Shown: positions 2,470 to 50,071 of the stretch, piece after piece
How the letters are laid out: each line of letters starts with the position of its first letter
Numbering within the stretch: the first letter of the stretch is position 1
Virus record (IMG/VR): IMGVR_UViG_3300001598_000010
Span: 1-50,071 of that record
Reading direction: 5' to 3' (one strand)
Origin: a virus
Length of the DNA stretch: 50,071 nt
Program-made: the position numbers and the translations under genes
Notes under the pieces: model-generated
Database searches by the model: none
The model's input: only the letters and a program-made list of their open reading frames with translations
Told to the model about the DNA's origin: nothing

Positions 2470-3498
2470 TTACAGCTTGGAAAGCCATTGTTCCCATATC
2501 TGGGTTGCCACATTAGCCATCATCACCGGCGGCACACTCATTCCGCAAATGTAATTGGGTCTTTGTCCACAAAAATTGTAGTCCAAAGGGAATGTCGAAC
2601 CAAGCACGATTTCACGGTTTGAAAGGAAGCACGGTTTGTGATAGGCAATCGTTGCTTCTTGCTTGGCGGCAATAGTTGAAAGCACCTTGTCCGGCTTCTG
2701 CAAGGAACAATTGAAATACTTATCTTCGCCAAAGCACCGCTTTGAAATGTCCGCAAGGGATGCATCTTCATATTCGCGCCTATCCCAACATTTCCTGTAT
2801 GATGGCGGGATTGGATAACTTTCATCATCATCCATAAATTTCCGGTAGAAGATTGGTTCTTCATCGAATTCCATTTCAAATTTCGGCAAGGTTTCAAACA
2901 AGTTCACTTGTGTGAGAAACGGCGTTGCCAGATCCTTTCGCAAGCACACGAAGAACACCCGTTCCCGCCTTTGAGGAACACCCATTGTGGATGCGTTCAA
3001 CAGATAGTGTTGGCAATAATAACCGGCGGCATCGAATTCTTCGTGTATCTTCCGGACATATTCAATCGCGTTTCCCATCAGTAAACCTTTCACATTTTCG
3101 GCAACAACGACCTTTGGTTGAAGTTTCTTCGCCAGATCAATGAAATCAAAGAACAATGTGTCCAGAACTTGTTCCGCTTGCCCCTCTCTGAAATGCTTCA
3201 TCTTACCCCACGCATCTTCGCGGTCACCGGCAATCGAAAAGGTTGAGCAAGGCGGCGAACCGTCAAGGATGTCCAACTGATAAAGTTCTTCCGGCAAGTC
3301 ATCACGCATCTTGAAAGTCTGAATCGGTTCAAGGAACGGCATTCTTGGGTTCAGGTTCTGACAATAGGCGTACATCATTCGCTTGTCGATTTCATTGCAA
3401 CCAATAACATCGTAACTTGCTAATTTATAACCCATTGATGACCCCCCCACAAGAAAAACACGAAAATACCTTGCCCCGGTCTTTGGTGAATTTTGCAT
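2470..3498 (-). CDS. DNA (cytosine-5)-methyltransferase, orphan
   Basis: 342 aa. Motif IV GSPPCSTFS, motif VI ENVKGLL and motif VIII QRRERVFFV are present. No adjacent restriction endonuclease gene is recognisable. Confidence 0.85.
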   Translation of the reverse strand: MQNSPKTGARYFRVFLVGGSSMGYKLASYDVIGCNEIDKRMMYAYCQNLNPRMPFLEPIQTFKMRDDLPEELYQLDILDGSPPCSTFSIAGDREDAWGKMKHFREGQAEQVLDTLFFDFIDLAKKLQPKVVVAENVKGLLMGNAIEYVRKIHEEFDAAGYYCQHYLLNASTMGVPQRRERVFFVCLRKDLATPFLTQVNLFETLPKFEMEFDEEPIFYRKFMDDDESYPIPPSYRKCWDRREYEDASLADISKRCFGEDKYFNCSLQKPDKVLSTIAAKQEATIAYHKPCFLSNREIVLGSTFPLDYNFCGQRPNYICGMSVPPVMMANVATQIWEQWLSKL

Positions 3499-4145: not shown

Positions 4146-4982
4146 TTAGTGTTGTGCTTGTTCGTATAGGAATTTGTTGATGAAGTATTCCTGACCCTTG
4201 ACGGTGACCTTGGTGGTGTTCTTCTCAATGATTCTTCCGGATGAAAGCTGAACGCGGGATGACCTTATCACGAACAACCCTTGTTCGACATACTTCTGGC
4301 GCGGCAAGTTGTATTCTGAACCATAGGCGCAAAGGAACTGTTTGTCGCGCATCCATTGGAACAATCGCATTTCGCCGATGTCAACGCCCGCCTGACAAAG
4401 CATCTTGGCAAGTTCTGAAATGGAAATTGGGTCGTTGGACAACTTGACGGTTGTTCTTTCCGTTGTTGCCGGTCTTGCGCCCGCCTTGATGCCGTTGCTG
4501 ATGATGAAGTCCAACTTTTCTTCAATGGCTGACAGGCGGGAAATCTTGCCGCCAAGTTCATCAATTCGTGCAATCAATTCCAGATATTCTTGCATCGTGA
4601 TAGGTGCTGCAACCTTGACCGGTTCATTTGCCGGAAGTGTCTGTTCAAAATCTTCGTTTTCGAACAGATCAATCGGCTTCTGTATCGTTGGCGCATCCTT
4701 GCAATCGTATTGGGCAAGGATTGCGGACTTTTCAACTTCGATGTGCGGGATTGTCTTTGTAAGCTGTATGAAGCCATTCTTTGTCACCCAATATGATGTC
4801 TGGGTCTTTCCATTACAATCCCGGTAGGATGTTTCGATGAAGTCATTTTCAAGACCAGGAATTGACTTCAATTTTCTTACCGACTTCAAGATGTTCTTGT
4901 GCTGCCGGTTCAATTCGATGGCAATGTGCGTTGTTTCGGCTGCAAGCACGCCATCCTGTCTTTTGTGTACGATCTGAATCAT
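4146..4982 (-). CDS. Rha-family regulator with a KilAC/antirepressor-like C-terminal domain
   Basis: 278 aa. N-terminal Rha-like segment (THIAIELNRQHKNILKSVRKL...YWVTKNGF). C-terminal antirepressor-like segment (ISELAKML...LFQWMRDKQFL). Confidence 0.65.
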   Translation of the reverse strand: MIQIVHKRQDGVLAAETTHIAIELNRQHKNILKSVRKLKSIPGLENDFIETSYRDCNGKTQTSYWVTKNGFIQLTKTIPHIEVEKSAILAQYDCKDAPTIQKPIDLFENEDFEQTLPANEPVKVAAPITMQEYLELIARIDELGGKISRLSAIEEKLDFIISNGIKAGARPATTERTTVKLSNDPISISELAKMLCQAGVDIGEMRLFQWMRDKQFLCAYGSEYNLPRQKYVEQGLFVIRSSRVQLSSGRIIEKNTTKVTVKGQEYFINKFLYEQAQH

Positions 4983-5000: not shown

Positions 5001-5726
5001 TTATAGATTTGAAGTAAGGGTTCTTCTGTCTTTCCCTTTGAGTTCATAATAATTGCACATTTCACCCAAGCGTGATGCAACACGGTCACCGTATCGTTCA
5101 GCCATCTTGTTGCCGGAAATGCGTAAGTTTGATGTCACCAAGGTGATCTGGTTTGTCTGGTCACCTCTGTATTCAAGAAGCGTTTGAAGCACATTCATTC
5201 GGTTTCCCATTGAAACACTTTCCGCCGGTTCACGACCAAGGTCTTGGATTCCGATGATAGGCATTGACTTGTATCTTGATATGAAGCCATCCTGAACAAA
5301 TGCATTGCAGATATTTTCAGCCGGAACATTTCCCCAATATAAATTGTTCATTTCTTTGCCGATTCCGACCTTAAACTTCAACGCAAGTGATGTGGCGCAC
5401 ATAATTTCAAGACACCAAGACTTTCCAGAACCGGTGTTTCCACCGATGTAGATGCCTTTCTCCAAACGACCGGGAACGGTTTCATTGGGTTGTTCCGGAT
5501 TCAACGCCACCATTGATGGGTCACAGACAAGCCATTTAGCGAAATTTTCGTAAACGAAGCGGTTTTCTTCATCCAGAACAAATCGCGGATTTCTTGACTT
5601 GCCGATTGCCGTTGCAACCTTAATTACATCTTCCCAAGAAAGGCTTGAACGGTAGCGTGTCACGGTAGGGAAATAACCCCTTTCGTGCAACTGTTCGATT
5701 ATGGAATTCACATCAATCATTGCCAT
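5001..5726 (-). CDS. DnaC/IstB-like AAA+ ATPase (helicase loader)
   Basis: 241 aa. Walker A GGNTGSGKS, Walker B-like IGIQDLG and a sensor-like LVTSN. It sits immediately downstream of the replication initiator-like gene. Confidence 0.7.
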   Translation of the reverse strand: MAMIDVNSIIEQLHERGYFPTVTRYRSSLSWEDVIKVATAIGKSRNPRFVLDEENRFVYENFAKWLVCDPSMVALNPEQPNETVPGRLEKGIYIGGNTGSGKSWCLEIMCATSLALKFKVGIGKEMNNLYWGNVPAENICNAFVQDGFISRYKSMPIIGIQDLGREPAESVSMGNRMNVLQTLLEYRGDQTNQITLVTSNLRISGNKMAERYGDRVASRLGEMCNYYELKGKDRRTLTSNL

Positions 5727-6580
5727 TCGGAATTTGCGCTGTTATTCTGGGATGTCTTGGTCTGGCGGTCATTATAATTGCCCTCTGCCACCTTAACCCA
5801 ATTCTTTGAGTTCTCAAAGACCCAATCGAAAGTTGCTTTCCAACCGGTCTTGTTGTCACCGCGCAAGAACTTGGAAGATTCCATTGCGCTGAATATGCTT
5901 TTAAGAAGATTCCAATCCTGTTTCATTTCATCCACGAAACGGATTCGGATTTTCGCCTTTCGCGCCTGACTGATTTTGATGATGCGCGGGAACGATGGAC
6001 ACAATTCGTGATAAAGATTCACGATCTGAACATAATCAATTTCATCACTCTTTCCAGAAGCCGGTTCAACCGAACCGGAAACTTCTGATTTATCAGAAGT
6101 AATAGTATTTATATTTTCTTTTCTTTTCTTTTCTTTATTACTATTACTTTCGTATTCGCTTTGAATTACATTTGTATTACATTCGTATTCTTCACCATCG
6201 GTGTCTTGTATTTCATCGTTGCCGGAAGCATCTGGATGCCATCTTTGCATAATGCTTTCACGCCTTTTTTCACAGATTGCCTTGCGTTCATTCATCCTTT
6301 TATTGGCTGATTCTGACCAGAAGTTGACACCATCGTTCTTGAAAAGATTGTAATCCATAACAACCCTTTCAACCTTGGCAACATCCTGATGAAGCGCAAA
6401 CGCAATGACCTTAATCTGGTTCAAAGGCAACGAACCACCATCCTTGTACAGATCTTCAATCAAGCACCAATAAATGCCCAATCCCTCACATCCCAAGTCG
6501 AACAACACTTGTTGCAGCTTGGAATCTGATTGTGCATTGTAATCGTGTGGAAAGTAGTGGTCTTTCATTTCGTTGTCCAT
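5717..6580 (-). CDS. Replication initiator / replisome organiser (DUF4373/DnaD-like N-terminus)
   Basis: N-terminus YFPHDYNAQSDSKLQQVLFDLGCEGLGIYWCLIEDLY matches the Lin1244-type DUF4373 pattern. Start refined to the ATG at 6580 (the track start at 6589 is TTG). Confidence 0.6.
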   Translation of the reverse strand: MDNEMKDHYFPHDYNAQSDSKLQQVLFDLGCEGLGIYWCLIEDLYKDGGSLPLNQIKVIAFALHQDVAKVERVVMDYNLFKNDGVNFWSESANKRMNERKAICEKRRESIMQRWHPDASGNDEIQDTDGEEYECNTNVIQSEYESNSNKEKKRKENINTITSDKSEVSGSVEPASGKSDEIDYVQIVNLYHELCPSFPRIIKISQARKAKIRIRFVDEMKQDWNLLKSIFSAMESSKFLRGDNKTGWKATFDWVFENSKNWVKVAEGNYNDRQTKTSQNNSANSEWQ

Positions 6581-6589
6581 AATTATCAA

Positions 6590-6617
6590 ATGCCCACCAC
6601 CGGATGATGGTGGGCAT
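6590..6617 (-). terminator. Strong hairpin immediately 3' of the remote DGR target gene
   Basis: 10-bp arms ATGCCCACCA / TGGTGGGCAT with an 8-nt loop. It lies 10 nt after the stop of ORF 6627-7142 and 10 nt before the next ATG. On the minus strand it is followed by TTTGATAATT. Confidence 0.4.
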
Positions 6618-6626
6618 AATAAATCG

Positions 6627-7142
6627 TTAACGAATCAACAAAACATCATTGAACAATTCGATAAAGGTCTTTCCGAATTCGGTTGCGCGTTTTTCCGTCT
6701 TGAAGCAAAGCCGAGAACCGACATACGCATACGTAAACGACCACGAACTATTCGAATTCGAGTAAACGAACCCCGCAGCACCCTTGTCATATACAAACCA
6801 AGGAAACCACTTGTATTGTCTGGAATCAGACCAATCCGGAACGAACCCATCTTCCTTATTCCACGCTTCCGCGATTGTGAACAGCTTTTCAAGTGCTTCA
6901 AGTGCCTTGTCGTGCTGATGGTTCTTGTCACCTTTATCAAGTCCAAGATATTTCCTTGCGGATTCATAGTTCGGAATTGTCGTTTCGATGACATCTTCAC
7001 ATTCAACGGTGAATATTGATGGCGAACCGGCTTCCGGGTCGTTGGAATCAATCTCTATCTGGATGATTGAAGCGATCTGTTTCTTGTCGAATGTTTCGGC
7101 AACCACTTCATCATTTTCATTCTTGATGATATATTTTTTCAT
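6627..7142 (-). CDS. Small early-region protein carrying a second DGR variable repeat (VR2)
   Basis: 171 aa. The C-terminal part AAGFVYSNSNSSWSFTYAYVGSRLCF is encoded by a 77-bp match to the DGR template repeat. Confidence 0.8.
   Translation of the reverse strand: MKKYIIKNENDEVVAETFDKKQIASIIQIEIDSNDPEAGSPSIFTVECEDVIETTIPNYESARKYLGLDKGDKNHQHDKALEALEKLFTIAEAWNKEDGFVPDWSDSRQYKWFPWFVYDKGAAGFVYSNSNSSWSFTYAYVGSRLCFKTEKRATEFGKTFIELFNDVLLIR
6703..6779 (-). repeat. DGR variable repeat 2 (VR2), remote from the RT
   Basis: Hand alignment to TR positions 19657-19733 gives 77 bp with 10 mismatches, all where the TR has adenine on the coding (minus) strand. Confidence 0.85.
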
Positions 7143-7161: not shown

Positions 7162-7896
7162 TTATTCTTCGATAATAGTAAGTGCCGGGCATCTTTCGCG
7201 GATTTTGGCAAGTTCCGCATCAATGACGGAATCACGGATGGCTTCAAGCGTTGCATTGGCTTCCGGTGACAAAAGGATAAATGACACTTCACGACCATTG
7301 ACTTTGGCGAATGTTTCGACTTCCAAGGTTTCAGCCGGCATTCCCTTGAAGATTGGGATGTGAAGCACGAACATCGGTGGAAGATTTGAATTGACTATCT
7401 GGGTGAAGTTGTCGGTCGTGTTGCCGTTGCCCTGAACACTTCTTTCGACCTTTGCGTTGATGGTCGCATTGAAGTTCATCAGTTCGCTGACCAACTTCAT
7501 ATTCGTTGCCTTGTCCGCAAAGAATGTCTTGTTCATCTTGAAGAACAAACCAAGTGAAGCCGGTGTCCAGACAACATCCGCGTTGTTAATTCCAAACGAC
7601 TTGAACGCCGGATGCATAGCAAGTTTGCCGCGAACACATCCTTTGTTGTAAGGGTCATTTTCGTTGATGGTAAGTGTCATTTCGACTTCCTCACGGTTCA
7701 CGACAAGACAGCTTCTTTCGATGGCGAACTGACCGGTTTCGATGCGCTTGTCAAGGAATTCGAAGATGGATGGAAGTGTTCCGTTGAGATTCACCGGAAT
7801 CGGCGGTCGGTTTTCCAATGGTTTTGCGGCTTCGCCGTGTCTGATAGTGACTTCCTTTTCTTTGGCAATAAGGTTGATTTTGATTTCCTGTTCCAT
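7162..7896 (-). CDS. Hypothetical early protein
   Basis: 244-aa uninterrupted ORF in operon context. No motif recognised. Confidence 0.6.
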   Translation of the reverse strand: MEQEIKINLIAKEKEVTIRHGEAAKPLENRPPIPVNLNGTLPSIFEFLDKRIETGQFAIERSCLVVNREEVEMTLTINENDPYNKGCVRGKLAMHPAFKSFGINNADVVWTPASLGLFFKMNKTFFADKATNMKLVSELMNFNATINAKVERSVQGNGNTTDNFTQIVNSNLPPMFVLHIPIFKGMPAETLEVETFAKVNGREVSFILLSPEANATLEAIRDSVIDAELAKIRERCPALTIIEE

Positions 7897-7902
7897 AAGG
7901 CA

Positions 7903-8352
7903 TTAAGAATTTAAGGTTTGTGACTGTAAATCTTCTTTCTGGCGCAAGGTTGCGAAGATGGTTGGTTGAAGTTCATCGGCGGTTGCCGGTCTGCATTCAA
8001 TCAGGTCACCATCGGCGTTGTAATAACCCGTTTCCTTGCTCAATTGATCTGTGAATTTGTAACAGATTTCGGTGACATATTCGGATTTTGCCTTGATGTT
8101 GCCGACCATCTGGTTTCGCTGTTCCAGAAGCGGTTTCAACTTGCCGTTGATGGTTGCAACGGCGGCTTTCTTTTCCGCTTCAAGTTCCATAATGTTGATG
8201 GAAAGGTTTGCAAGGTTCTCTTTGTGACCTTGAAGTTCCGCCGGTGTGTACGGCTTCATATAACCTTTCTGTTCGCACGCATCACAATTGTCTTTCAGAT
8301 ACGCTTCGCGTGCGGCGGCGTTGACAATTTCTTTACCAAGATACTTTTCCAT
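7903..8352 (-). CDS. Hypothetical early protein (coiled-coil-like centre)
   Basis: 149-aa ORF, tightly packed in the operon. Confidence 0.6.
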   Translation of the reverse strand: MEKYLGKEIVNAAAREAYLKDNCDACEQKGYMKPYTPAELQGHKENLANLSINIMELEAEKKAAVATINGKLKPLLEQRNQMVGNIKAKSEYVTEICYKFTDQLSKETGYYNADGDLIECRPATADELQPTIFATLRQKEDLQSQTLNS

Positions 8353-8363
8353 TGTTTTGGATT

Positions 8364-9110
8364 TTAGAATGGCATATTACTGAATGATAAGACAAGACCT
8401 TTGTCTGCAACGAACACCGGCTTTCCGATTTCCGTTTCAATGTCGCGCTTGAATTCCTTGGCGTTGGAATTTCCATCGGAAAGGTGAATCAAGACAATGT
8501 TCCGGACATCGGTCAGATCGTTTGCTTTGAGGATTTCCAGACAGGTTTCAAAGCTGCAATGGCTTTGAAGCGTGCGGTTGCGCATCTTCATCGGAATTCT
8601 TCCATTCGCAACATTGGCATCAAGGATGTCTTTGCGGTAGTTGCATTCCAGAAGAATGTGGTTCAGTCCGGAAAAGGTGAAATGCAGATAATATGTGTCC
8701 GTTGCGAAAAGGCAAGTTCCCATTTCTGGGTGATTGATAAGAAATCCGAATGGTTCTTTGGCATCGTGCTTCGCATCGAAAGGGATGACACGGAATCTTC
8801 CGATTTTTTCCGCGACTTTCGATGTGATCTGATGACACATCCGGTTCTGGGAAATGTTCAACGCTTCCGATGTTCCCCTTGACATATAACAAGGGATCTG
8901 GGCGGAAAGGCACTTTTCAACCTCTCTGGCGTGGTCTTGGTGTTCGTGTGATACAATTACACCATTGATGCGTGAAATGTCGAAATTCAAGGCTTTTTTG
9001 ACCTCAATGAACGGCACACCGCATTCAATCACCAGGCATTCACTTCCATTGTCCAGAAGATAGCAATTGCCTTTTGAACTTGACCCCAAAACTTTCAATT
9101 CCATAACCAT
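8364..9110 (-). CDS. Metallo-beta-lactamase-fold hydrolase/nuclease
   Basis: 248 aa. Canonical HxHxDH motif (SHEHQDH). Adjacent to RecT and the SbcC-like ATPase. Confidence 0.75.
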   Translation of the reverse strand: MVMELKVLGSSSKGNCYLLDNGSECLVIECGVPFIEVKKALNFDISRINGVIVSHEHQDHAREVEKCLSAQIPCYMSRGTSEALNISQNRMCHQITSKVAEKIGRFRVIPFDAKHDAKEPFGFLINHPEMGTCLFATDTYYLHFTFSGLNHILLECNYRKDILDANVANGRIPMKMRNRTLQSHCSFETCLEILKANDLTDVRNIVLIHLSDGNSNAKEFKRDIETEIGKPVFVADKGLVLSFSNMPF

Positions 9111-9131: not shown

Positions 9132-9887
9132 TTAGAACCCCGGATTCCTTGGTTTGGAATCGGTCTTGACCACTTCGCCGGTCTTTGTGTCAACGACAGC
9201 TTCAACGGTCTTGTCACCGCTTGGACTTCCGGCATCGAAACCGATCTGTTCTTTATTGGCATCAACCGCCTTTTCTTCCTGAATTTGTTCATCCACCGGA
9301 ATCACTTGTTCTTCCTGTGTGTACATTCCGCCAAGAAGTGCCGGGAACGCTTCGCGCAAAGCCTGAACCTTTGCGACCTTGGCAATCATTGTGGACTTCT
9401 TTTCATTCCAGATGGATTGCTTCTTGTCGTATTCTTCCAAGTTCACCTTGGAAACATAAGGGAACTTTCGGTCGGAACGATAGACCTTTGCCCATCCACC
9501 GACAAGGACATCATTCTTGTCGCAATAACATCCCTCTAATTCGATGACCGCATCCCCGCGCCTTACGATGATACCGGCTTGAATTCCGTCATAATTCGGT
9601 GACAGTTCCGCACGCTTCATCAAGGCTTCCTTTGACACAATCATCTGTGCCGGTTGCGTTCCGAACTTCACCAGATAGGCTTCATTCAAGAACGGGTTCA
9701 ACTGATTGAACTGACAGATGGAAATGAACTGAACAAGGTCTGCATCGGTGACATCACCGTTTCCCTTGGTAAGATAGTTTCGCACGATTGTGCGCGAAAG
9801 GGTTACTTCTTGCCCGTTGGACAAATACACAACCGGCTTCTTTTCTTCTACAACCTGAACGGCTGACTTTTGATTTTCGTTTGCCAT
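9132..9887 (-). CDS. recT: RecT/Bet-family single-strand annealing protein
   Basis: 251 aa. The segments QFISICQFNQLNPFLNEAYLVKFG, IVSKEALMKRA and MIAKVAKVQALREAFP resemble the RecT family. Confidence 0.8.
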   Translation of the reverse strand: MANENQKSAVQVVEEKKPVVYLSNGQEVTLSRTIVRNYLTKGNGDVTDADLVQFISICQFNQLNPFLNEAYLVKFGTQPAQMIVSKEALMKRAELSPNYDGIQAGIIVRRGDAVIELEGCYCDKNDVLVGGWAKVYRSDRKFPYVSKVNLEEYDKKQSIWNEKKSTMIAKVAKVQALREAFPALLGGMYTQEEQVIPVDEQIQEEKAVDANKEQIGFDAGSPSGDKTVEAVVDTKTGEVVKTDSKPRNPGF

Positions 9888-9893
9888 AATTGA

Positions 9894-11858
9894 TTATTTA
9901 ACGATAAGTTTGGAATCAGATGTGACAACCATCCGGACAATTTGGCTTTCCGTGTGAATGAATTCATTCACGCTTTCCGCATTGTCAAGGAAGATTGGTG
10001 CTTGCACGCCATAGTGCTTGCAAAGTGTGTTGATTATGTCAAGACCGGCATTGATCTGCGATGCGCGGTTGGTCGTTCCGAATGGGACACCGTTGACAAG
10101 TGCAACACAAGTTTCAACGGGATTCCCGTCAATGGTATAGTCGAACAGACGGAATGTGACCATCTGGAACATCTTGTTGACCCTTGCCGTGCATTCATCA
10201 ATGCGTGCCTTGGTGAAGTTCTGAATGGTGAATTCGGTCTTTTCGATGTCGGCAATCTGTTGTGCCAGATCCTTGCCCTCTTTTTCAAGGCTTTCGATTT
10301 CTTCATTGGCACGAATGATTTGGTCTTGTGCCGCAAGTCTTTTCATCAGGTCATCGCGCTTCTGGTTGGCATTGGACAACGATGCTTTAAGACCATCCGA
10401 ATCAACGGATTCGGAAGAAATGTTGTGGTCAATCTCCGCTTCCATTTCATCCAATGACTTTTTGATGTCGGCATATCCGGGAACCTCTTCAACCTTGACT
10501 TCAACCGGCTTAACTTCCGGTGTGTTGTCCAATTCGTTCTGCACCTTTGCAAGATGCTCGTTGGCGCACTCAATGTCGAACACCAACTTTTCAACGGTCT
10601 TATTCCTTTCTTCAAGTCTGGCTTTGACGGATTCCCATTCCTGATTGTTAAGCTGACCGTTATTTGTAATCTGTTCAAGCCTTGCCGCCTTTTTCGCATT
10701 GAACTTTGCCTTGATGGTTGAAATCTGGTCATCCGGCAACGGCTGACCGCAAGTTGGGCAAACGGCAGACCCGTTCCATTCGGTCGCATCAAGTGAAGTC
10801 CATTCATCCAGAAGTTCGGTGCGTTTCTTCGCGCAAGCATTTGATGTTGCTTCAAGATGCTTGATTTCATTCTTGGCGGTTTCCAATTCGGTTTCTTTCA
10901 TCCGGATTCCGGACTTGATTGAAGATATGGACAACACAAGTTCAACACGCTTCTGGTTGGCATCCTGTGCATCCTTACGCGCCTTTTCCTTTGCTTCATA
11001 GAATAGTGAATCAAGGTGTGCTTTGGCGTTGTTGATTTCGCTTTGTTTATCCTGTTGTGCCTTGAACTTTTCGCGCTGCGCCCTGACAACATTCTGCATC
11101 TGAACATTGATGCTTTCGATTTCCTTGTTGACATCCGCCAGATCCTTTTTCAAGGCATCGAAATCTTCCGATTCCGGCATCATCTTGTGGGTCTGGTCAA
11201 TTCTTGGCTGAATGTGGTCAAGTTCGGTTTTAAGGCGCGATTTCTTGGCGGCAATCTCACGCTTGAAGTCAAGCAATGATTTCCCGGAAAGACGGTCAAG
11301 AAGCAATGCGAAGTCCTTGTTGTCCTTTGCGATTTCTTCATCCGTGACATTCCCGGCAAGTTGGAAAAGCTGTTCACGCTGCAAGTTCCACTTCATCGAA
11401 GTGAAGAACGCCGGATTGGTTATCATCTTGAACACATCGGCATCAACGATGGCTTCAACGCGCTTGGCATATTCGCCGACATTGACCGGTGATTCATTCC
11501 ACCAACATTCCGTGCGGTTGCCCTTGAACACAAGTTCAACGCATCCACGCGGCTTGACCCAATCTTCAACGAAAGAACGCTTCAAGGTGATCTGTTCGCC
11601 ATTCACAAGAAGAACACCGGTGACGGAACATTCACAATTGTGAAGTGGTTCGCCATTCACGATGGTGCGGATTTCATAATCTTTGCGTTCCTGTGCATCC
11701 TTTCCGAATAGCAACCAAAGAAACGCATCGAAATGTCTTGACTTGCCCAATCCGTTTGCGCCACATATTGTGGTGATGTCGGAATTGAAAGTCGTTGTCC
11801 GTTCCTTTTCACCCTTGAAATTGACAAGGGAAAGGGATTTCAAAACGATCTGTTTCAT
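9894..11858 (-). CDS. SbcC/Rad50-like SMC-type ATPase
   Basis: 654 aa. Walker A GANGLGKS, a long coiled coil with a CPTCGQPL zinc hook, and a C-terminal IFLDNAES Walker B/D-loop. Confidence 0.8.
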   Translation of the reverse strand: MKQIVLKSLSLVNFKGEKERTTTFNSDITTICGANGLGKSRHFDAFLWLLFGKDAQERKDYEIRTIVNGEPLHNCECSVTGVLLVNGEQITLKRSFVEDWVKPRGCVELVFKGNRTECWWNESPVNVGEYAKRVEAIVDADVFKMITNPAFFTSMKWNLQREQLFQLAGNVTDEEIAKDNKDFALLLDRLSGKSLLDFKREIAAKKSRLKTELDHIQPRIDQTHKMMPESEDFDALKKDLADVNKEIESINVQMQNVVRAQREKFKAQQDKQSEINNAKAHLDSLFYEAKEKARKDAQDANQKRVELVLSISSIKSGIRMKETELETAKNEIKHLEATSNACAKKRTELLDEWTSLDATEWNGSAVCPTCGQPLPDDQISTIKAKFNAKKAARLEQITNNGQLNNQEWESVKARLEERNKTVEKLVFDIECANEHLAKVQNELDNTPEVKPVEVKVEEVPGYADIKKSLDEMEAEIDHNISSESVDSDGLKASLSNANQKRDDLMKRLAAQDQIIRANEEIESLEKEGKDLAQQIADIEKTEFTIQNFTKARIDECTARVNKMFQMVTFRLFDYTIDGNPVETCVALVNGVPFGTTNRASQINAGLDIINTLCKHYGVQAPIFLDNAESVNEFIHTESQIVRMVVTSDSKLIVK

Positions 11859-18108: not shown

Positions 18109-18495
18109 TTAAACATCAAGTGTCCGGTCAAGCAATTCGGCAACATCCTTGCGGAAAGTAAGGAATTCACGATATTCGGCAACAGCCTGTTCGTTTTCCT
18201 CAATTCCAAGAATGTGTGAATTGTAGGCATTGACAAGTGCGAATTCTTCCGATTCGTTCAGGACTGAACGCAGAATGGCGTGCTTGCAAGCATCCTTGGT
18301 GATTTCGTTCCAAACGATGACTTTATAACACTTCCAACCCACCTGAACGGGTTCTGTTGCGCCCTCTGGTGTGTTGTATTCCGCTTCGATGTTGAACCGG
18401 TAATAATAGAAACCCTGAACATCCCTTTCGGTGATGGCGGGTCTGCCGTGCGCCATATCATAATGGGCATTTGGCTCTAACGAATCTAATCTCAT
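18109..18495 (-). CDS. Hypothetical protein immediately downstream of the DGR reverse transcriptase
   Basis: 128 aa, or 115 aa from the ATG at 18456, which lies 1 nt after the RT stop. Acidic and not obviously helical-bundle. No motif recognised. Confidence 0.55.
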   Translation of the reverse strand: MRLDSLEPNAHYDMAHGRPAITERDVQGFYYYRFNIEAEYNTPEGATEPVQVGWKCYKVIVWNEITKDACKHAILRSVLNESEEFALVNAYNSHILGIEENEQAVAEYREFLTFRKDVAELLDRTLDV

Positions 18496-19489
18496 AAGGA
18501 AATGATTTTTGAAGTTTGTTAATCAGGTTCTTCGAATTGCCGTATTTGCACCACCCCCACCAAGAACAAATGTTCTGTTTGTAGGCTTTTTCTTCGACAA
18601 GAACCTTTGATCTGTTCAGCATTGCCACCCGGCGGCAAAGTGCTTGTTTGATACCTTTCCGCAACAATGTATATCCGTGAAAGAACACATAACCCAAGAA
18701 GTCAACACCCCTTGAATCGGTCGGAAAGACTTGGTAATTCTTCTTGACTTTCAGTTTCAGGTTCACGCGCATATATTCACGGATGTCGTGCATCAAGGCG
18801 TGAAGTTCTTCTTTGGTGGATGCGAAGATGGTTATATCATCCGCATACCTGAAAAAGTATTTGACCCGCTTGACCTCTTTCAGCCAATGGTCAAAATATG
18901 TCAAGTAAAGATTTGCGAAGTATTGTGAAAGATAGTTCCCAATGGGAACGCCACTTTCAACGGAATCAATGATTTCATCCAGAAGATTCAAAAGGCGTTC
19001 ATCCTTAATCTTTCTTCGCAAGATCTGTTTCAGGATGGTATGGTCAATTGACGGATAAAACTTCTTGATGTCCAATTTAAGACAGTATCTTGTTCCCTCT
19101 GGGTCTTTCTTCAAGGCAAAGCGCACATCCCTTGCGCAAGCGTGGATTCCACGATTCTTGATGCAAGAATATGTGTTCGCCACGAACAATTTGACCCAGA
19201 TGGGTTCAAGAACATTCATAATGGCGTGATGCAAGATTCTGTCCGGATAATACGGCAAGCGGAAAATCAAGCGTTCCTTGGGTTCGAAAATTGTGAAAGT
19301 CTGGTATTTTGAAGTGTGGTATGTTCCATTTACCAACGCTTCGTGCAAAGCAACAAGATTGGCTTCACGATTGCGGTCGTGAATCCTCACGCCAATGGAA
19401 TTCTTCTTGTTCTTGCGTGCTTTGGCATCCGCAAGTTCCAAGTTTTCCATTGACACGATCTGGTCAAATAAGCCATTCAATCTTTTCAT
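18458..19489 (-). CDS. DGR-type reverse transcriptase
   Basis: 343 aa. RT motifs include IGNYLSQYFANLYL (the DGR-typical SQxxAN context) and RYADDITIF (YxDD). A template repeat lies 167 bp upstream. Confidence 0.92.
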   Translation of the reverse strand: MKRLNGLFDQIVSMENLELADAKARKNKKNSIGVRIHDRNREANLVALHEALVNGTYHTSKYQTFTIFEPKERLIFRLPYYPDRILHHAIMNVLEPIWVKLFVANTYSCIKNRGIHACARDVRFALKKDPEGTRYCLKLDIKKFYPSIDHTILKQILRRKIKDERLLNLLDEIIDSVESGVPIGNYLSQYFANLYLTYFDHWLKEVKRVKYFFRYADDITIFASTKEELHALMHDIREYMRVNLKLKVKKNYQVFPTDSRGVDFLGYVFFHGYTLLRKGIKQALCRRVAMLNRSKVLVEEKAYKQNICSWWGWCKYGNSKNLINKLQKSFPYEIRFVRAKCPL

Positions 19490-19773
19490 TCCTTTGCTTG
19501 AATATTAGGATTCTTCGGTCTTTCAACCTACCAAAACCGTTTTTCGATATGTACTTTTTTGCCCTTGTGGTTTTTCACACAAGACATTCGCCACCCATTG
19601 TGGCGTTTTTGTGGCACGGTTTCCGGTGCAAGGTTCTTCCCAGATCATATATTTCCAAGCATAGCTGAGAACCGATATTCGCATTCGTATTCGACCACGA
19701 ATTATTCGAATTCGAGTAAACGAACCCCGCATTCGCACCATTATTCGCATTACCGCTGAAACACAAGGCACGC
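19490..19773 (-). ncRNA. Putative DGR template RNA (TR plus structured spacer leading into the RT gene)
   Basis: TR at 19657-19773, followed by a 167-nt non-coding spacer. The spacer has stem-loops CGCCAC/GTGGCG (19589-19605) and CTTGTG/CACAAG (19564-19583). Confidence 0.55.
19657..19773 (-). repeat. DGR template repeat (TR)
   Basis: 117 bp. In the VR frame it reads ...CFSGNANNGANAGFVYSNSNNSWSNTNANIGSQLCL, rich in AAT (Asn) codons. It matches VR1 over 117 bp and VR2 over 77 bp. Confidence 0.9.
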
Positions 19774-19853: not shown

Positions 19854-21173
19854 TTACGGAATAAAGCAAAGCCGAGAACCGAAATACGCAGACGTACCCG
19901 ACCACGAATAATACGAATTCGAGTAAACGAACCCCGCATCCGCACCAGAATGCGCATAACCGCCGAAACACAAGGCACGCGAAGCCACACCAGAATCCGG
20001 GATGGCTGTATAGAAGTAATCACAGAAGTATGTGGTTGAACCGCCACCGATTTCCTTTGGCATAATGTCACCATTATCATCAAACAGAATGGATTTGATG
20101 TAACCGGAACTTCTTGGAAGATTACCGATGAAAGTGTAACCGGTCAATTCGGATGCGCTTGTGTTGAACTTTGACGGGTCATCACAAGTATAGAACTTCG
20201 ATTCGCCATCATCACCGGCGGCAATCAGAATCTTCGTTCCGTCAACCCACTTGAAGATATGACCGAAAGGATTTTCCACACCGCGATATAACGGAACACT
20301 TGTGGTGTATGCGCCACCATAAGCGGTTGCCTGTTCTTCATTAAAGGAGAACGAAACGACACCAGACTTGTTGCCAAGGCTGTTGGTATATCCGCACGGG
20401 ATGAACGGATTATAACTGTTGTAAGTGTTCCATTTCGTTGAAATGATGTTGGACACACCATCACCCAAGCCGCCCTGACGGTAACCCTCTGGTGTAAGGG
20501 ATGCGTTGAATGCTTTCTGTGAATGGAATGTGCAATATTCAACGGCGAAAAGCCAGAACAACTTGCGTTCCTGTTGATAAAGCATCATATTCCACTTGCT
20601 TTCACCGCTTGCGCCACGATTGCGGGCATAAGTGCGGAAGTTGGTCGGCGAAATAGATGTTGCCGGTTTTCCGAGAAGTGAACGATAAGTTTCATCCCAT
20701 CCGGAAGTGTTGTTTCCACCGCGAAAATCGGTGGTCAGATTGACAACGGAAGCCATCTTGTTGTTGGAACGCTGCACGGTTGCTTCATACGCGCCAACAT
20801 AATCCTTTGACCACTTCTTGAAGCCGGGCAAAGCATAAGTTGACATCAAGCAACGCTGCACATCACCATCCTGTTCGAAACGAACATACATATCCGGAAT
20901 TTCGACCATTACTTGTCCATCAGTTCCATCAAGCACGGCATCCGCGCCGGTCGTGGTCTTTGTGGAATCGTTGGCATCCAGATAATAGTTGACAGATCCG
21001 TCATCGTTGAGCAAGCAACGGCGCATCTGTGACTGAATCGGCAATGTGTTGTGCAAAACGGTCTTTCCTATTCTGGTGGGTTCACCAGAAGATTGGACAC
21101 TCCATTGAATGCCGTAATAGGCATCATAAGGAAAAGCGGGTCTTGTTGACCCTACACCAATGACAAGTCCCAT
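19854..21173 (-). CDS. DGR target 1: tail-fibre/receptor-binding-like protein with a C-terminal variable C-type-lectin-like region
   Basis: 439 aa. The C-terminus ...GGYAHSGADAGFVYSNSYYSWSGTSAYFGSRLCFIP is encoded by VR1. It lies at the distal end of the tail module. Confidence 0.85.
   Translation of the reverse strand: MGLVIGVGSTRPAFPYDAYYGIQWSVQSSGEPTRIGKTVLHNTLPIQSQMRRCLLNDDGSVNYYLDANDSTKTTTGADAVLDGTDGQVMVEIPDMYVRFEQDGDVQRCLMSTYALPGFKKWSKDYVGAYEATVQRSNNKMASVVNLTTDFRGGNNTSGWDETYRSLLGKPATSISPTNFRTYARNRGASGESKWNMMLYQQERKLFWLFAVEYCTFHSQKAFNASLTPEGYRQGGLGDGVSNIISTKWNTYNSYNPFIPCGYTNSLGNKSGVVSFSFNEEQATAYGGAYTTSVPLYRGVENPFGHIFKWVDGTKILIAAGDDGESKFYTCDDPSKFNTSASELTGYTFIGNLPRSSGYIKSILFDDNGDIMPKEIGGGSTTYFCDYFYTAIPDSGVASRALCFGGYAHSGADAGFVYSNSYYSWSGTSAYFGSRLCFIP
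19864..19980 (-). repeat. DGR variable repeat 1 (VR1)
   Basis: Hand alignment to the TR gives 117 bp with 16 mismatches, all at TR adenines on the coding strand. Confidence 0.9.
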
Positions 21174-22012: not shown

Positions 22013-25000
22013 TTATAGTGCAACCCATCCAGATCCACGATTGATCTGGACACCGTTTGCCCTTGTGATACGAAGTCCAATTGCGCTTCCGGATGATGAT
22101 AATCCTTGCAAAAGAATTGTCGGCGTGCCACTATCAAGCGCGAACACGGCGGAAAAACTGTTGCCAAGATGGATTGCAATGCCATTCGCGCCTATCTGGA
22201 TTGATTGAAGCGTTGCGGATGTAATGATGACATTGCCGGTTGATTCGTTCTGGAATGATACGGAAATCCAATTGCCATACCAATCTTCTGGGTCAACCCA
22301 CCATTCCCAAGATGCGCTTACCTTGATTTCGTAAGTACCCGCGCCCAAAGTCAAAGTTCCGCCATTGTATGTTATGCCCTTTGAACCTTGGTTTTGCGCC
22401 AACACAACCCGTGAACCGGATGATTGATTTATGACATAGATAAACATCGAATTCATATCAATCGTGCCGCCATAGTACCCTTGTTGTTCATCTTCCGAAA
22501 TCTCAATTCTTGGGATATTGACTTGTGTTCCGGCTGATTGAACCGTGAATGTACAAATGGACATTTCGCCCTGGTCTTGACCGCTTTGTCCTTTTTGCGA
22601 ATAAGTGTCACCCATCCACGATTGTTTCAATGGGAACGATGCGGTTGGTGTTCCGATGTCAATATCTTCACCCTTGACCAACAGCTTCTGGTTGTTGTTG
22701 GCATCGTACATTGTCATTTCGTTGTTCTGGATGATGATTCGCTTTCCGGTTTCGGCGGTTCGCAGAATACGGATAACGGCGTTATCAATCACAGCTTCGG
22801 CGGCAAACAAGAATCCGGTCGCAATGTTCTCATAACTTGCACCGAACTGTTCCCAATATGAAGTATTGGTTGGCAATACGCTGACAAAAGGTGATTGTGG
22901 CGCATCCGGTCTGGCACGATAATACGCGCCTTGGTATTTGACCACATCACAACGATAGTCGCACCCATAATATGTGGCGGTGCTTGCATATTCACCGCGA
23001 TATGGTGATGATGGTGATTTACCATCCTGACCATCTTGCCCGTCTTGTCCATCCTGTCCGTCACGACCATCGTTTCCGTTGTTTCCATCTTGTCCGGAAA
23101 GAAGAACCGGTGTTGTCCAAGTTCCGGCAACGCCACTTGCAGAAACAACCGCGCAAGTCATCCAAGTTCTTGGTGTGTCAAGAATCTTCACGACAATCTT
23201 GTCATCGTTGGCAACCGATGAACCATCCTTGGTGTAACCGACATAAAAGAAATGCGTTCCGGCGGATTCAATGTTGATTGTCACAAGCGCACTTTGCGTT
23301 CCGGACACCCTTGCAAGGTAACTTGATGTACTGTGCGCCGAATCATCAAGATTGCAGATATATCCGAAATCATAATTGGCTTCTGATGATGCGAAGATTC
23401 GAACCATCACTTTGGTGTTCGCCTTGGTGGTCACGATCTGAATCTTTTCCCAAGTTGCACCGGAATGACCGATGGCGTTTGATGTCAAGGTCTTTCCATT
23501 GACAACCCAATCACCGGTGTATGTAGGCGAAACGATGTCACAGATCGGTGGCGCATCATTCCATCCGGTCGGAATCGGTGATGTGCTTGTCGGCTTTGCC
23601 GGTTGCGATTCGGCGGCTTGGAACACAAAGGAAGTATGTGAACCATCCGTTCCATCTGTTCCATCCGTTCCGTCTTGTCCATCTTCACCAACGATTTTTA
23701 TTGCCGAACTCCAAGACCCAGAACCGACCCTTTCACGCATATACTTGTCACCACTCTGGAACGAAGAATGCCAAGAAGAACTTCCGTTCACCGAAAATTG
23801 GACTTCGATGCTTGAACCATCCGTTCCATTAGAACCGGGTTCACCTTTTTCGCCCTTGATTTTGCTGATTTCCCAAGAACCCCAAGTTCCGTTCTTGCAC
23901 TTGCGCATTGCCATCCAGATGTCGGAAGATGTTGCGGTGTTGTGCCAATTGCTTGGGTTGGATGTAGGGTTGCCCGGATTGGAAGAAACGGCGGAATATT
24001 CAAAGTCAATGTCAGCCGTGTCCGTTGCCACTTGTGGAGTTGTCCACGCTGCCTGTTGCGGTGTCAGTCCGTCACTTGTGAAGATTCTGGTTGACATCCA
24101 CAATTGCGCTTCACCTGATGGAACGCCATCACTCCACCCGGATGGAACGGGTGAAGCATACGAACCGCCCGTTGGCGTTGATGGCGTGGTGTTAGTGCGC
24201 TTGAAAACAATGGACTTGAATGTTGACTGTCCATCTGCACCATCTTCACCATCTTGACCATCTTCGCCGGGGTCACCCTTGTCACCTTTCGCGCCACCGG
24301 ATGCATACACTTTCCAATATGCCGTTTCGGTCACCGCGTGACCCTTGGTTGGCGTTGAATTGATGTACATATATGTTGCCGATGTCGTTCCATCAGAATA
24401 TGTCACGGTGTCACCGGAATAATACATCGTTTGCGCGTTCCAATCACCGCGATAGACCGGCATATCATAGGCTTCGCCAGATCCGGACACAATCTTGACA
24501 TTGCGCATTGAGAACTGACCGTTCCGGGTCACATTCCAATCAATGTAGCAAGAATCATTGCCGAACCGGATTTTGTTTTCATCCAAATCAATGTAATTCT
24601 TTCCATCGGCACTTTGGATTCTTCCGGTCGTGATGTAACGCCCGTTAATCATCGTGAAGCCGTATGACAAGGAAATGTCACGGATTCCCAATTCGGAATC
24701 AACGGCGTGAAGAACGCCAATCCAGAAATGGTAATAATCCGGATCTGATTCGCAAGGGATCTGTTGCGTACTGAACAGAATCGTTCCGGCATTGGTTGAC
24801 CTTGAACATTTCGCATAAATATAGAACGCATCCGAATCTTTCTGGAATGTGAATGTATTGTTCGCCAATGTCCACGACACCGCCTGTTGTTCATCAATGG
24901 TGTAGTGAACAAGCGTGCCGCCGGTGACTTTCATTGAATTCTTGTTGCCGCCGAAATTCGGTTCAAAGACAGTTCCCACCAATCCAAACTGCATTGACTT

Positions 25001-26656
25001 TGCGCCCACAGACAGAAGCAATGTGTCAATACTGTTCGGCTTGATTTTATCGGTGTAATAATCACCCTCTGGGTCGAACACCATATTCAACAATTCACGC
25101 GAAGAACGCCAATTGGCACGCGCCCTTGTTGGGTCTTGCAAGTTGTTGATGTTGATGATGTCCTGAATGTCCTGAATGTCGGAAATCACCCTTGTTGTGA
25201 TGCTTGTCGAAACGGTGTCCGAAATGGTCAGCACATATTCATAAGCATCAAGGATGTTGCGCGAAATTTGCTGAACCCTGACAGACTTGTTGACACCGAC
25301 ATCGGAATCTTGGATTGGAATGTAATCACCCGGATGGAAAACATTCGTAACAGATTCTTCCGAAACGCCAATCAGTTCTTCCAGATACGCTTTTGCGATT
25401 GAAAGCGCATATTTGACCAAAGGCTGACAATTTGTGGCAAGATATTCTTCGCCCTTTTCTTCAAGCAAATCTTCCGCATCTTCGACATAGGAATCCGGCA
25501 AGGCAACATCAATCAACTTATATGTGTCACCGGCTTTGATCTGAAACGCGGCTGATGAAGCGGATGGGAATTGGTCACCCCTTTCATCGGTCTGCTTGCA
25601 AAGCGTGAATGTCTTGGTTGTGTGGTCATAGGAATGAATGTCGAATTCATATCCGGCAAGGTTGCCAGAATTGAAGTGAACCTTGGCAGATACGCCCGGC
25701 AGAAGATAAAGCGTGTTGCCGCTTGAATCCTTTGCGTTCAAGTCGAACATTCCCGTGTCAACGAACTGCAACACATTGTCAGCAACAATGGATGTCACAT
25801 TGCCGCCGAATGTCGGCTTGATGTCATCGAAATACTTTGTTGCTTCAAAAATGCCGTATGCCGTTTTTGCGGCTGCGTTCTCCAAGTATGACTGTCCTTT
25901 GCTCTTTCCCGGTAAGCAAAGGCGGTTTGCCCTGTATTTGGTTGTAATGTTCTGGGTTGAACCGAACACTTTCAACCTTGTCACGATATTGGAAGAATCA
26001 ACATTCAGGCGTTGAAGATTGTACAGTCCGCCCGCGTTTCCGAACTGAAATGTGTAAGGGAACACCGAACCGATTGATGTCTGGAAATTGATGACATTGA
26101 CACCGTTGGTTGTAACGATGTCGAATTCCACCTTGAATTCCTGACAAAGCTGTTGAAGAACGGAAAGGCAATTCGCACTTTCTCCGAAAGTCAAGCATCT
26201 GTCCGCATCCGTTTCCGGACAAGTGCCAACCGCCCAAGAACGAGCAAACACACGGTTGGCATTGGCAACAAGGACATTGGCGAACCGTTCCAGATCCCCG
26301 GTCAATGAATCCGCCTGAATGTCTTGAAGCTGACAAGAAGTGGTGTCAACGGTCAAGTCGTATGTCACGCGCATCAGGTCATATTGGATGCCCTCAAATT
26401 CACATTCGTATTGCAGAAGATGCGTTTTGGTCTTGGTAATCTTGGGCAACCGGTTCATCTTGTAGGTGCGACCGAATATGCTTACCGAATCACCAATCCC
26501 CAAGTTCAAAGCAACCGCCGATTTGACGGTCACTTTGACCAGATCATCACCGTTCAATGTCCATTCTTGCCTTGCGGACACAATGGTGCAAGGCAAGTTC
26601 TTGTTGGACAATTGAACAGTTGAACCGTTGGGTTTGTTAACTGTTATTTGCTTCAT
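22013..26656 (-). CDS. Large tail tip / host-specificity protein with four collagen-like G-X-Y segments
   Basis: 1547 aa from the ATG at 26656 (the track start at 26677 is TTG). Its position after the Dit-like genes fits a Tal/gpJ-like role. G-X-Y runs lie at 24230-24295, 23816-23854, 23642-23689 and 23021-23095. Confidence 0.8.
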   Translation of the reverse strand: MKQITVNKPNGSTVQLSNKNLPCTIVSARQEWTLNGDDLVKVTVKSAVALNLGIGDSVSIFGRTYKMNRLPKITKTKTHLLQYECEFEGIQYDLMRVTYDLTVDTTSCQLQDIQADSLTGDLERFANVLVANANRVFARSWAVGTCPETDADRCLTFGESANCLSVLQQLCQEFKVEFDIVTTNGVNVINFQTSIGSVFPYTFQFGNAGGLYNLQRLNVDSSNIVTRLKVFGSTQNITTKYRANRLCLPGKSKGQSYLENAAAKTAYGIFEATKYFDDIKPTFGGNVTSIVADNVLQFVDTGMFDLNAKDSSGNTLYLLPGVSAKVHFNSGNLAGYEFDIHSYDHTTKTFTLCKQTDERGDQFPSASSAAFQIKAGDTYKLIDVALPDSYVEDAEDLLEEKGEEYLATNCQPLVKYALSIAKAYLEELIGVSEESVTNVFHPGDYIPIQDSDVGVNKSVRVQQISRNILDAYEYVLTISDTVSTSITTRVISDIQDIQDIININNLQDPTRARANWRSSRELLNMVFDPEGDYYTDKIKPNSIDTLLLSVGAKSMQFGLVGTVFEPNFGGNKNSMKVTGGTLVHYTIDEQQAVSWTLANNTFTFQKDSDAFYIYAKCSRSTNAGTILFSTQQIPCESDPDYYHFWIGVLHAVDSELGIRDISLSYGFTMINGRYITTGRIQSADGKNYIDLDENKIRFGNDSCYIDWNVTRNGQFSMRNVKIVSGSGEAYDMPVYRGDWNAQTMYYSGDTVTYSDGTTSATYMYINSTPTKGHAVTETAYWKVYASGGAKGDKGDPGEDGQDGEDGADGQSTFKSIVFKRTNTTPSTPTGGSYASPVPSGWSDGVPSGEAQLWMSTRIFTSDGLTPQQAAWTTPQVATDTADIDFEYSAVSSNPGNPTSNPSNWHNTATSSDIWMAMRKCKNGTWGSWEISKIKGEKGEPGSNGTDGSSIEVQFSVNGSSSWHSSFQSGDKYMRERVGSGSWSSAIKIVGEDGQDGTDGTDGTDGSHTSFVFQAAESQPAKPTSTSPIPTGWNDAPPICDIVSPTYTGDWVVNGKTLTSNAIGHSGATWEKIQIVTTKANTKVMVRIFASSEANYDFGYICNLDDSAHSTSSYLARVSGTQSALVTINIESAGTHFFYVGYTKDGSSVANDDKIVVKILDTPRTWMTCAVVSASGVAGTWTTPVLLSGQDGNNGNDGRDGQDGQDGQDGQDGKSPSSPYRGEYASTATYYGCDYRCDVVKYQGAYYRARPDAPQSPFVSVLPTNTSYWEQFGASYENIATGFLFAAEAVIDNAVIRILRTAETGKRIIIQNNEMTMYDANNNQKLLVKGEDIDIGTPTASFPLKQSWMGDTYSQKGQSGQDQGEMSICTFTVQSAGTQVNIPRIEISEDEQQGYYGGTIDMNSMFIYVINQSSGSRVVLAQNQGSKGITYNGGTLTLGAGTYEIKVSASWEWWVDPEDWYGNWISVSFQNESTGNVIITSATLQSIQIGANGIAIHLGNSFSAVFALDSGTPTILLQGLSSSGSAIGLRITRANGVQINRGSGWVAL

Positions 26657-50068: not shown

Positions 50069-50071
50069 AAA
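49973..50071. repeat. Right copy of the 99-bp terminal direct repeat
   Basis: Identical to bases 1-99. Confidence 0.9.

Follow-up and report, generated by a model that had tools for sequence, protein, structure and literature searches.

The diversity-generating retroelement (DGR) of Bordetella phage BPP-1 is the mechanistic paradigm for this class of elements. Its reverse transcriptase (RT) carries an IGxxxSQ motif, it is accompanied by the protein Avd, and adenine-specific changes pass from a template repeat (TR) to a single variable repeat (VR) with AAY codons, located at the C-terminus of a structural C-type-lectin protein, the tail fibre Mtd. The VR ends in an initiation of mutagenic homing (IMH) element followed by a hairpin, and the difference between this element and its TR counterpart, IMH*, makes the transfer one-way. 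This paradigm reportedly emerged from work by Liu in 2002, Doulatov in 2004 and Guo in 2008 and 2011. Phage DGRs are usually explained as changing the receptor specificity of the tail. Here, we describe the DGR of a gut phage of roughly 50 kb, IMG/VR record IMGVR_UViG_3300001598_000010 (50,071 nt; this whole stretch is referred to as the window), which diversifies both an adjacent tail protein, through VR1, and a remote 171-amino-acid protein encoded among recombination and replication genes (6627-7142, minus strand), through a second variable repeat, VR2.

Targets of this kind have been reported before. Benler et al. (2021; Microbiome 9:78, PMC8008677), whose abstract describes the previously known phage DGR targets as structural, found in Quimbyvirus a DGR with two targets, one in the tail module and a distal protein judged non-structural, which the paper numbers ORF 80 in places and ORF 84 elsewhere. 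A 2025 Nature paper (PMC12629997) describes four prophage species of Bacteroidota that have another, distal VR close to counter-defence genes, the same phenomenon as in the window but in induced, cultured gut prophages; it cites Benler et al. (2021) and the LoVEphage paper together for LoVEphage, and contains no analysis of the protein family. The UHGV preprint discusses tail DGR targets only. Remote or multiple targets are also known in bacteria (Wu et al. 2018, PMC5758913; Roux et al. 2021, PMC8144416), where the DGRs of Legionella, Treponema denticola and cyanobacteria resemble that of the window in that one TR serves several VRs, some of them remote. Those targets are cellular, mostly surface or signalling proteins, whereas the one described here is a phage protein. 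By their own account, remote targets were beyond the reach of the metagenome survey of Roux et al. (2021; PMC8144416), so phage examples are under-sampled. Finally, one paper (PMC10907252) proposes DGR-diversified intracellular sensors for bacteria. The initial annotation of the window, which called a small non-structural target unusual, thus overstated its novelty in view of PMC8008677 and PMC12629997; the kind is already published, and the window is a further case in a different phage lineage and in a replication/recombination context.

The DGR cassette of the window is readily recognized. A repeat finder placed 6703-6819, 19657-19773 and 19864-19980 in one family (D2). The middle repeat is AAT-rich and lies between a 439-amino-acid ORF (open reading frame) and the RT gene, which identifies it as the TR (117 nt, 19657-19773, minus strand); its 3' 19 nt (19657-19675) constitute an IMH*-like end. 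By repeat family and alignment, VR1 (19864-19980, minus strand) forms the C-terminus of the 439-amino-acid tail protein (19854-21173, minus strand), the adjacent primary target, which matches the tail protein family phrog_5302 (E = 8.8e-119). The RT (343 amino acids, 18458-19489, minus strand) matches PF00078 (E = 1.8e-20) and phrog_1423 (E = 2.9e-121) and possesses the DGR signature, with PIGNYLSQ as the IGxxxSQ-type motif and RYADD as the YADD motif.

The remaining repeat, VR2, is situated 12.9 kb from the TR in the small target ORF, which begins with ATG and lies on the same strand as the RT gene. The position first assigned to this ORF, between a DnaD-like initiator gene and other early genes and about 13 kb from the RT, is correct. 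In alignment, the homology of VR2 to the TR comprises 75 nt (6703-6777), the 3' two-thirds of the TR, with 8 mismatches that all fall on TR adenines; for 17 adenines among 75 sites, the hypergeometric probability of 8/8 is 1.4e-6. The initial annotation had counted 10 mismatches in 77 bp, all at adenines. The restriction to adenines stands, but of its ten supposed mutations only six represent diversification. Two are fixed differences in the IMH-like element, and two (AA to GC, 6778-6779) lie outside the homology, since the bases that follow are non-adenine mismatches. The six true variable sites are found in four of the six AAT codons and in the ATC codon.

The diversified part of VR2 (6722-6777, minus strand; 56 nt) contains 15 TR-adenine positions, in six AAT codons and in TAC, ACG and ATC codons, and encodes ...AAGFVYSNSNSSWSFTYAYV. 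The reading frame, shared by both target genes, places the TR adenines at positions 1 and 2 of the AAT codons as well as in TAC, ACG and ATC, and the differences observed in VR2 are at codon positions 1 or 2. In theory, this arrangement gives a 20-residue patch a repertoire of 4^15, or ~1e9, DNA variants and ~7e8 protein variants, with no stop codon arising. The TR codons AAT AAT read TAT TAT in VR1 and AAT AGT in VR2, and AAT ACG AAT reads GGT ACG TCT in VR1 and TTT ACG TAT in VR2, exactly as the initial annotation gave them. VR2 is internal to its gene, as also noted at the outset, though 24 residues follow it in the window rather than about 30; in all 68 relatives there are 28-37 codons before the stop.

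Evidence that VR2 is being diversified comes from a comparison of relatives. We took from IMG/VR 80 loci around orthologues of the small target and 80 around related RTs; 18 contigs were present in both sets, with RTs 60-75% identical. The arrangement is kept in 18/18 of these, and in each the repeat of the small protein aligns to its own genome's TR just upstream of the RT gene. When every VR2 was compared with its own TR over the 75-nt core, 212 changes were A-to-N and 3 were of other kinds. Comparison of VR2 with VR1 in the same 18 relatives gave mixed substitutions, which is what copies that diversify separately should show and what the codon differences between the two repeats had first suggested. 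Additionally, among 45 orthologues in the same register the Shannon entropy was 1.61 bits at TR-adenine sites of VR2 and 0.15 bits at non-adenine sites. It was 0 over the last 19 nt of VR2 and 0.55 and 0.90 bits in the flanking coding sequence. That non-adenine positions of VR2 are more uniform than the rest of the gene is what one would expect of a repeat copied over and over from the TR, and these positions also follow the differences between the TRs of different genomes. The check suggested at the outset, whether orthologues differ at TR-adenine positions, thus gave a positive answer, and the orthologue alignment is nearly invariant except for the block GFVxAxTxxxPSxTxAxxGSRLCF, which is VR2.

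The same pattern is apparent over a much shorter evolutionary distance. A Logan contig 99.08% identical to the window over 13.6 kb has 12 differences in the small ORF, and 9 of the 12 are clustered within 36 nt (6722-6757), all of them at the first or second position of TR AAT codons or at the A of ATC. Invariance of VR2 where VR1 varies would have spoken against a second target; VR2 was found to vary wherever VR1 varies. Furthermore, each VR2-like homologue that was checked (those of the 18 relatives, of the phages Versailles and LoVEphage, and of three tandem loci described below) comes from a genome that also encodes a DGR RT and has a TR of its own. The target gene is distant from the RT as a rule, with only 1/80 of the closest orthologous loci having an RT within 10 kb. 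The single DGR of this phage has in VR2 a conserved target that is genuine and active at present, and the initial proposal that it also acts on a remote second site, in a small protein of the early operon, is upheld by the adenine-only mismatches, by 18/18 relatives and by two Bacteroides phages.

A second line of evidence concerns the 3' end of the repeats. The last 19 nt of VR2 (6703-6721, minus strand; TCGGTTCTCGGCTTTGCTT) are the same as the 3' end of VR1, and in 19 genomes (the window and the 18 relatives) both VRs end in this identical 19-mer while the TR always reads TCGGTTCTCAGCTATGCTT. The two fixed differences are CAG in the TR versus CGG in the VRs, and CTA versus CTT. The exact VR2 19-mer was present in 68/80 orthologous loci. 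Because CTT and CTA both encode leucine, selection on the protein cannot explain the invariance of the 19-mer. The two fixed positions would lie outside the transferred segment and, by analogy with BPP-1, would correspond to the distinction between IMH and IMH*; as a sequence pattern, the 19-mer is a predicted target-recognition element for homing. At the 5' boundary of the VR2 homology, the TR reads TGCAGGG in 18/18 relatives and every VR1 and VR2 reads TGCGGGG. This difference is likewise synonymous and invariant, and the TR of the window itself already has G at that adenine site.

The small target belongs to a large family. A search returned 2699 homologues at 90% clustering, most of the matches listed being singletons, typically on contigs of ~50 kb, and an exhaustive search gave 1467 clusters at 50% identity with residues 72-170 as the shared module. 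The residues framing the VR patch (GF... and GSRLCF) are conserved in most of the family, which is spread over at least four Bacteroidales phage lineages, with the arrangement always in register with the genome's own TR. No close relatives at the DNA level were found among GenBank phages; the homologues there are distant proteins, 27-33% identical, of the Bacteroides phages Versailles, BI-TP1 and LoVEphage and of Phocaeicola phage PV4-TP1. The GenBank entries BI-TP1 and PV4-TP1 are LoVEphage-like. LoVEphage records were matched by tblastn at E = 1e-4 to 6e-4, with 27-30% identity over residues 55-169 and shared motifs in the alignment. In Versailles and LoVEphage the RT gene is far from that of the homologue, the RTs of these lineages are 36-42% identical, and the repeats in the homologues match the TR over 112 nt with 15 and 11 mismatches, respectively, again restricted to adenines.

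Synteny extends to Versailles, in which the homologue is preceded by SbcC, RecT, an MBL (metallo-beta-lactamase) hydrolase and NinB and followed by a replisome organiser and DnaC. The large terminase subunit (TerL) of the window is closest to that of Porphyromonas gingivalis phage005 (70%) and next to those of Bacteroides fragilis siphophages (~44%); LoVEphage TerL is not among the 15 best records listed. Together, these terminase affinities and the distant homologues indicate that the arrangement spans several phage lineages. The RT has a different affinity. Its nearest GenBank relatives, 60% identical, are the RTs of the crAss-like phages cr55_1 and cr52_1, and its identity to RTs of DGR-carrying phages (crAss-like, Versailles and LoVEphage) is 36-61%, with Bordetella phage records also among the matches. 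As the RT is crAss-like while the structural genes resemble those of a Porphyromonas siphophage, the DGR cassette appears to have moved between unrelated Bacteroidales phage lineages.

Some members of the family have a DGR of their own. In three contig groups (L166:4703-6874, L167:8001-10235 and L169:8001-10231), tandem two-domain proteins of 300-346 amino acids are encoded directly upstream of an RT gene, the TR occupies the spacer between the two genes, and there is a VR in each domain copy. Of the six tandem VRs, five differ from the TR at adenines only, apart from 1-2 positions at the 3' edge; the second copy in L169 has a 6-nt gap and four non-adenine mismatches. The neighbours are early genes, encoding a DUF3799 exonuclease, an SNF2 helicase, ParB, a Lin1244_N initiator, PAPS reductase and a DNA methylase. 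Since the tandem proteins are the adjacent target of an early-region DGR, diversification of the family appears to be selected in its own right rather than a side-effect of a tail-directed element.

Comparison with the described systems defines what is shared and what differs. Like the window, Quimbyvirus and LoVEphage have one DGR, a tail target beside the RT and a distal small target diversified at adenine sites, and the small target of the window is a distant homologue (27-33% over residues 55-169) of a TR-matched LoVEphage protein (OY731444 15651-16235). The genomes differ in size (50 kb versus 71-75 kb) and belong to different phage lineages, the RT is a single ORF in the window and three frameshifted ORFs in LoVEphage, and VR2 takes 75 of the 117 TR nucleotides, compared with 112 nt in LoVEphage and Versailles. 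The small target of the window has replication/recombination neighbours, whereas that of LoVEphage/Quimbyvirus lies among methyltransferases and a tRNA ligase (PMC8008677); we found these neighbours and the three-piece RT at the LoVEphage locus, as Benler et al. (2021; PMC8008677) described. With BPP-1 the window shares the adenine-specific transfer from TR to VR, AAY codons, a 3' IMH versus IMH* and the IGxxxSQ motif of the RT. It differs from BPP-1 in having two VRs 13 kb apart, in the lack of a detected Avd or significant hairpin, and in an internal VR2 that is followed by a conserved C-terminal helix of ~24 amino acids, on a scaffold with no detectable similarity to C-type lectins.

The small target is an acidic (pI 4.9), hydrophilic protein for which neither a signal peptide nor a membrane segment is predicted; it shows no similarity to structural PHROGs. 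It consists of a small N-terminal alpha/beta domain (approximately residues 1-50) and a C-terminal module of ~120 amino acids that carries VR2. It matches phrog_11581, a family of unknown function (E = 4.6e-19), the best stretch being residues 120-170 on profile positions 143-193 of 200. Alignment with the tail target by BLASTP covers 47 amino acids and by hhalign 38 columns, in both cases the TR-templated block only. Origin of the small protein as a copy of the C-terminal domain of the tail target was rejected on this evidence; with no similarity detectable outside that block, one hypervariable cassette is borne by two sequence-unrelated scaffolds.

AlphaFold2 models of the full-length protein (24-sequence alignment) and of residues 50-171 (50-sequence alignment) had mean predicted local distance difference test (pLDDT) scores of 71.9 and 79.2 and predicted template modelling (pTM) scores of 0.48 and 0.71. 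The predicted order of elements is a short helix, a long helix, a beta-hairpin, the VR loop (pLDDT <50) and C-terminal helices. In these models, the helix-helix-strand-strand-VR order could represent a pared-down C-type-lectin topology. A Foldseek search of BFVD returned a single match with E <0.001, an uncharacterised crAss-like protein.

Genes around the small target are closely spaced and concern DNA metabolism. All on the minus strand, they encode an SbcC-like ATPase (9894-11858), RecT (9132-9887), an MBL-fold hydrolase located between RecT and the small-target region (8364-9110), two proteins without an assigned function (7903-8352 and 7162-7896), then the small target, a DnaD/O-like initiator (5717-6589), a DnaC-like loader (5001-5726) and an antirepressor (4146-4982). 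Beyond the antirepressor are a dcm methyltransferase (2470-3498), 3 kb from the small target, and a DnaQ-like exonuclease. The gaps around the small target gene are 19 nt and 37-46 nt. The non-structural context claimed for this gene at the outset agrees with these neighbours and with the lack of a predicted signal peptide or membrane segment.

The MBL hydrolase gene, 1.2 kb from that of the small target, shares 69.6% identity over 168 nt with a gene of a Porphyromonas phage whose annotation reads Apyc1-like anti-Pycsar nuclease. In locus L165, the orthologue of the hydrolase gives a weak match to PF23023 (Anti-Pycsar_Apyc1). The enzyme could serve counter-defence or simply be the nuclease partner of RecT. 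PADLOC returned no matches for the neighbours, and NCBIfam no specific defence or anti-defence annotation.

A hairpin that separates the stop codon of the small ORF from the initiator gene's start (6590-6617; 12-bp perfect stem, 4-nt loop, -11.9 kcal/mol, z = -5.1) is real and as strong as originally noted, but it is not a conserved part of the system: a perfect hairpin of at least 6 bp follows the gene in only 2/68 relatives. It has no T-run and for that reason is not listed as a terminator; candidate roles are attenuation and the processing or stabilization of RNA. A role as a DGR element was rejected because the hairpin is 86 nt beyond the IMH-like element and absent from almost all relatives; it is probably specific to this lineage.

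Other features of the window lie outside the two targets. Just upstream of the tail target, a 1554-amino-acid tail-fibre-like protein (22013-26677, minus strand) contains blocks of 9-bp periodic repeats, collagen-like in their Gly-X-Y pattern. A 128-amino-acid ORF (18109-18495, minus strand) overlaps the 3' end of the RT gene; it is unlike Avd and matches phrog_11557, to which no function is assigned. Phage Versailles has a similarly placed overlapping ORF after its RT. The repeat finder also detected a 99-bp perfect terminal direct repeat (1-99 identical to 49973-50071), and this overlap marks the window as a phage genome of 49,972 bp whose assembly closes into a circle.

These observations lead us to propose, with a probability of roughly 0.8 for the explanation as a whole, that VR2 is an active trans target of a single DGR and resides in a soluble, early, non-structural protein that is likely a programmable binder. 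The RT would copy the TR transcript into cDNA, misincorporating opposite adenines, and the cDNA would overwrite loci that have the 19-nt IMH-like 3' end together with a short A-free 5' homology (GGGGTTCGTTT); homing in trans would depend on these two elements. Both VR1, in the neighbouring tail protein, and VR2, in the 171-amino-acid ORF at a distance of 12.9 kb, would be such loci. VR2 takes no more than the 3'-terminal 75 of the 117 TR nucleotides, and the two fixed TR/VR differences in the 3' element would keep the transfer one-way. Judged by its sequence and gene neighbourhood, the small target is predicted to be soluble, cytoplasmic and expressed early. It would have no enzymatic domain, and its conserved C-terminal module would display the hypervariable patch. 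The likeliest function is that of a programmable binding module with which the phage population would follow a polymorphic partner inside the cell, encountered soon after infection begins. That partner would most plausibly be a host defence or another host factor that differs between Bacteroidales strains, with counter-defence as the leading guess, and the tail receptor-binding protein and the binder would then diversify side by side.

Several results weigh against this proposal. Foldseek searches of PDB with both models gave no match (best E values 1.6 and 6), so that the initial annotation's suggested structure prediction yielded models but not the C-type-lectin fold it anticipated, and the VR loop itself was modelled with low confidence. 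Searches of Pfam, NCBIfam and PDB sequences, a profile HMM (hidden Markov model) search against PDB and Pfam scans of 25 family members were likewise without a match. Co-transcription of the small target with the early recombination and replication genes is probable, as judged from gene spacing, and a promoter and terminator scan, of a type unsuited to Bacteroidetes promoters, gave counts that did not exceed those of shuffled controls. The genes nearest the small target serve replication and recombination and do not form an obvious counter-defence island, as might suit a counter-defence binder. The variation of VR2 is a measurement made between genomes. Finally, two parts of the BPP-1 paradigm are missing or too diverged to see. 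No Avd-like accessory gene was detected by Pfam, PHROG, NCBIfam or PDB searches of the ORFs around the RT, and downstream of the IMH-like element of VR1 and VR2, in the window and in relatives, there are only GC stems of 3-4 bp (z from -0.8 to +1.15 when the DNA of 65 nt from the IMH onward was folded and compared with shuffled controls). To our knowledge, not all DGRs carry a recognisable Avd.

A more ambitious version of the same idea is that the C-terminal module of ~100-120 amino acids is an unnamed DGR scaffold distinct from the C-type lectins, and that it defines a large family (at least 1,400 clusters at 50%) of early, cytoplasmic, hypervariable proteins. These would be in effect intracellular antibodies, in which the TR cassette used for the tail is placed on a soluble scaffold to follow polymorphic host defence proteins or other host factors, and in some phages two-VR versions would have a dedicated DGR in the early region. 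This broader generalization is tentative, and we consider it rather unlikely as it stands.

Among alternatives to the proposal, the one that fares best accepts an intracellular binder but gives it a purpose other than counter-defence. The protein might sense or exclude rival phages or mobile elements, or it might be an adaptor for a host replication or recombination protein that is itself polymorphic and would be recruited in this way. Placement of the gene directly between the recombination genes and the initiator and helicase loader, in the clade of the window and in Versailles, would suit such a function, as would the intracellular sensors proposed for bacteria in PMC10907252. This placement does not hold for the LoVEphage/Quimbyvirus homologue, which lies among methyltransferases and a tRNA ligase (PMC8008677), and no effector or signalling domains are fused to the module in the relatives examined. 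A sensor or adaptor would fit the present data as well as a counter-defence protein does, but we regard the former as unlikely.

It is considerably less probable that the small protein forms part of the virion or associates with the tail, or is injected, and that VR2 is an ordinary second receptor-binding target. The Versailles homologue (L001:5866-6447, WAK79127.1) is labelled a tail protein in GenBank, via HHpred against PHROGs, and its VR block is the same in kind as that of the tail protein. The blocks are alike because one TR templates both, and the label most likely reflects that shared block, as profile-profile comparison aligns only 38 columns. Given that the Versailles gene is located in a recombination/replication module and that its likeness to tail proteins is limited to the DGR-templated block, the label is probably wrong. 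Moreover, in four phage lineages the gene is found among recombination, replication or methyltransferase genes, far from the tail genes, and the protein is small, acidic and soluble, with no similarity to structural PHROGs.

Even less probable is that VR2 is a bystander, an IMH/VR-like stretch captured by recombination into a tolerant gene and mutagenised without selected benefit. VR2 spans only the 3' two-thirds of the TR and the two target scaffolds are unrelated, as such a capture might produce; yet the arrangement persists in 18/18 relatives with RTs 60-75% identical and in lineages with RTs 36-42% identical. The frame puts the TR adenines at positions 1 and 2 of AAT codons, the residues that frame the patch are conserved in most of the family, and other phages dedicate a whole DGR to family members with two VRs. 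Lastly, chance or an ordinary repeat unrelated to the retroelement, which the many weak families of short repeats common in this 50-kb window might suggest, is refuted by the 8/8 adenine mismatches over 75 nt (P = 1.4e-6), by recurrence of the pattern in 20 further genomes with matching to their own TRs in the relatives and in Versailles and LoVEphage, by the entropy profile and by the 99%-identical genome.

The window therefore offers a clean, complete example of a phage DGR that, besides changing the tail protein to which such elements are usually assigned, also rewrites what appears to be a soluble early protein, and protein homology links it to the observation made in Quimbyvirus and LoVEphage. 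Cultured carriers of the family (Versailles, LoVEphage and BI-TP1) make the question of a binder directly testable. Should the small target indeed bind host defence proteins or other host factors, the reach of DGRs would extend from adsorption to barriers after entry, which would bear on the prediction of phage host range and on the use of DGR scaffolds in engineering intracellular binders.

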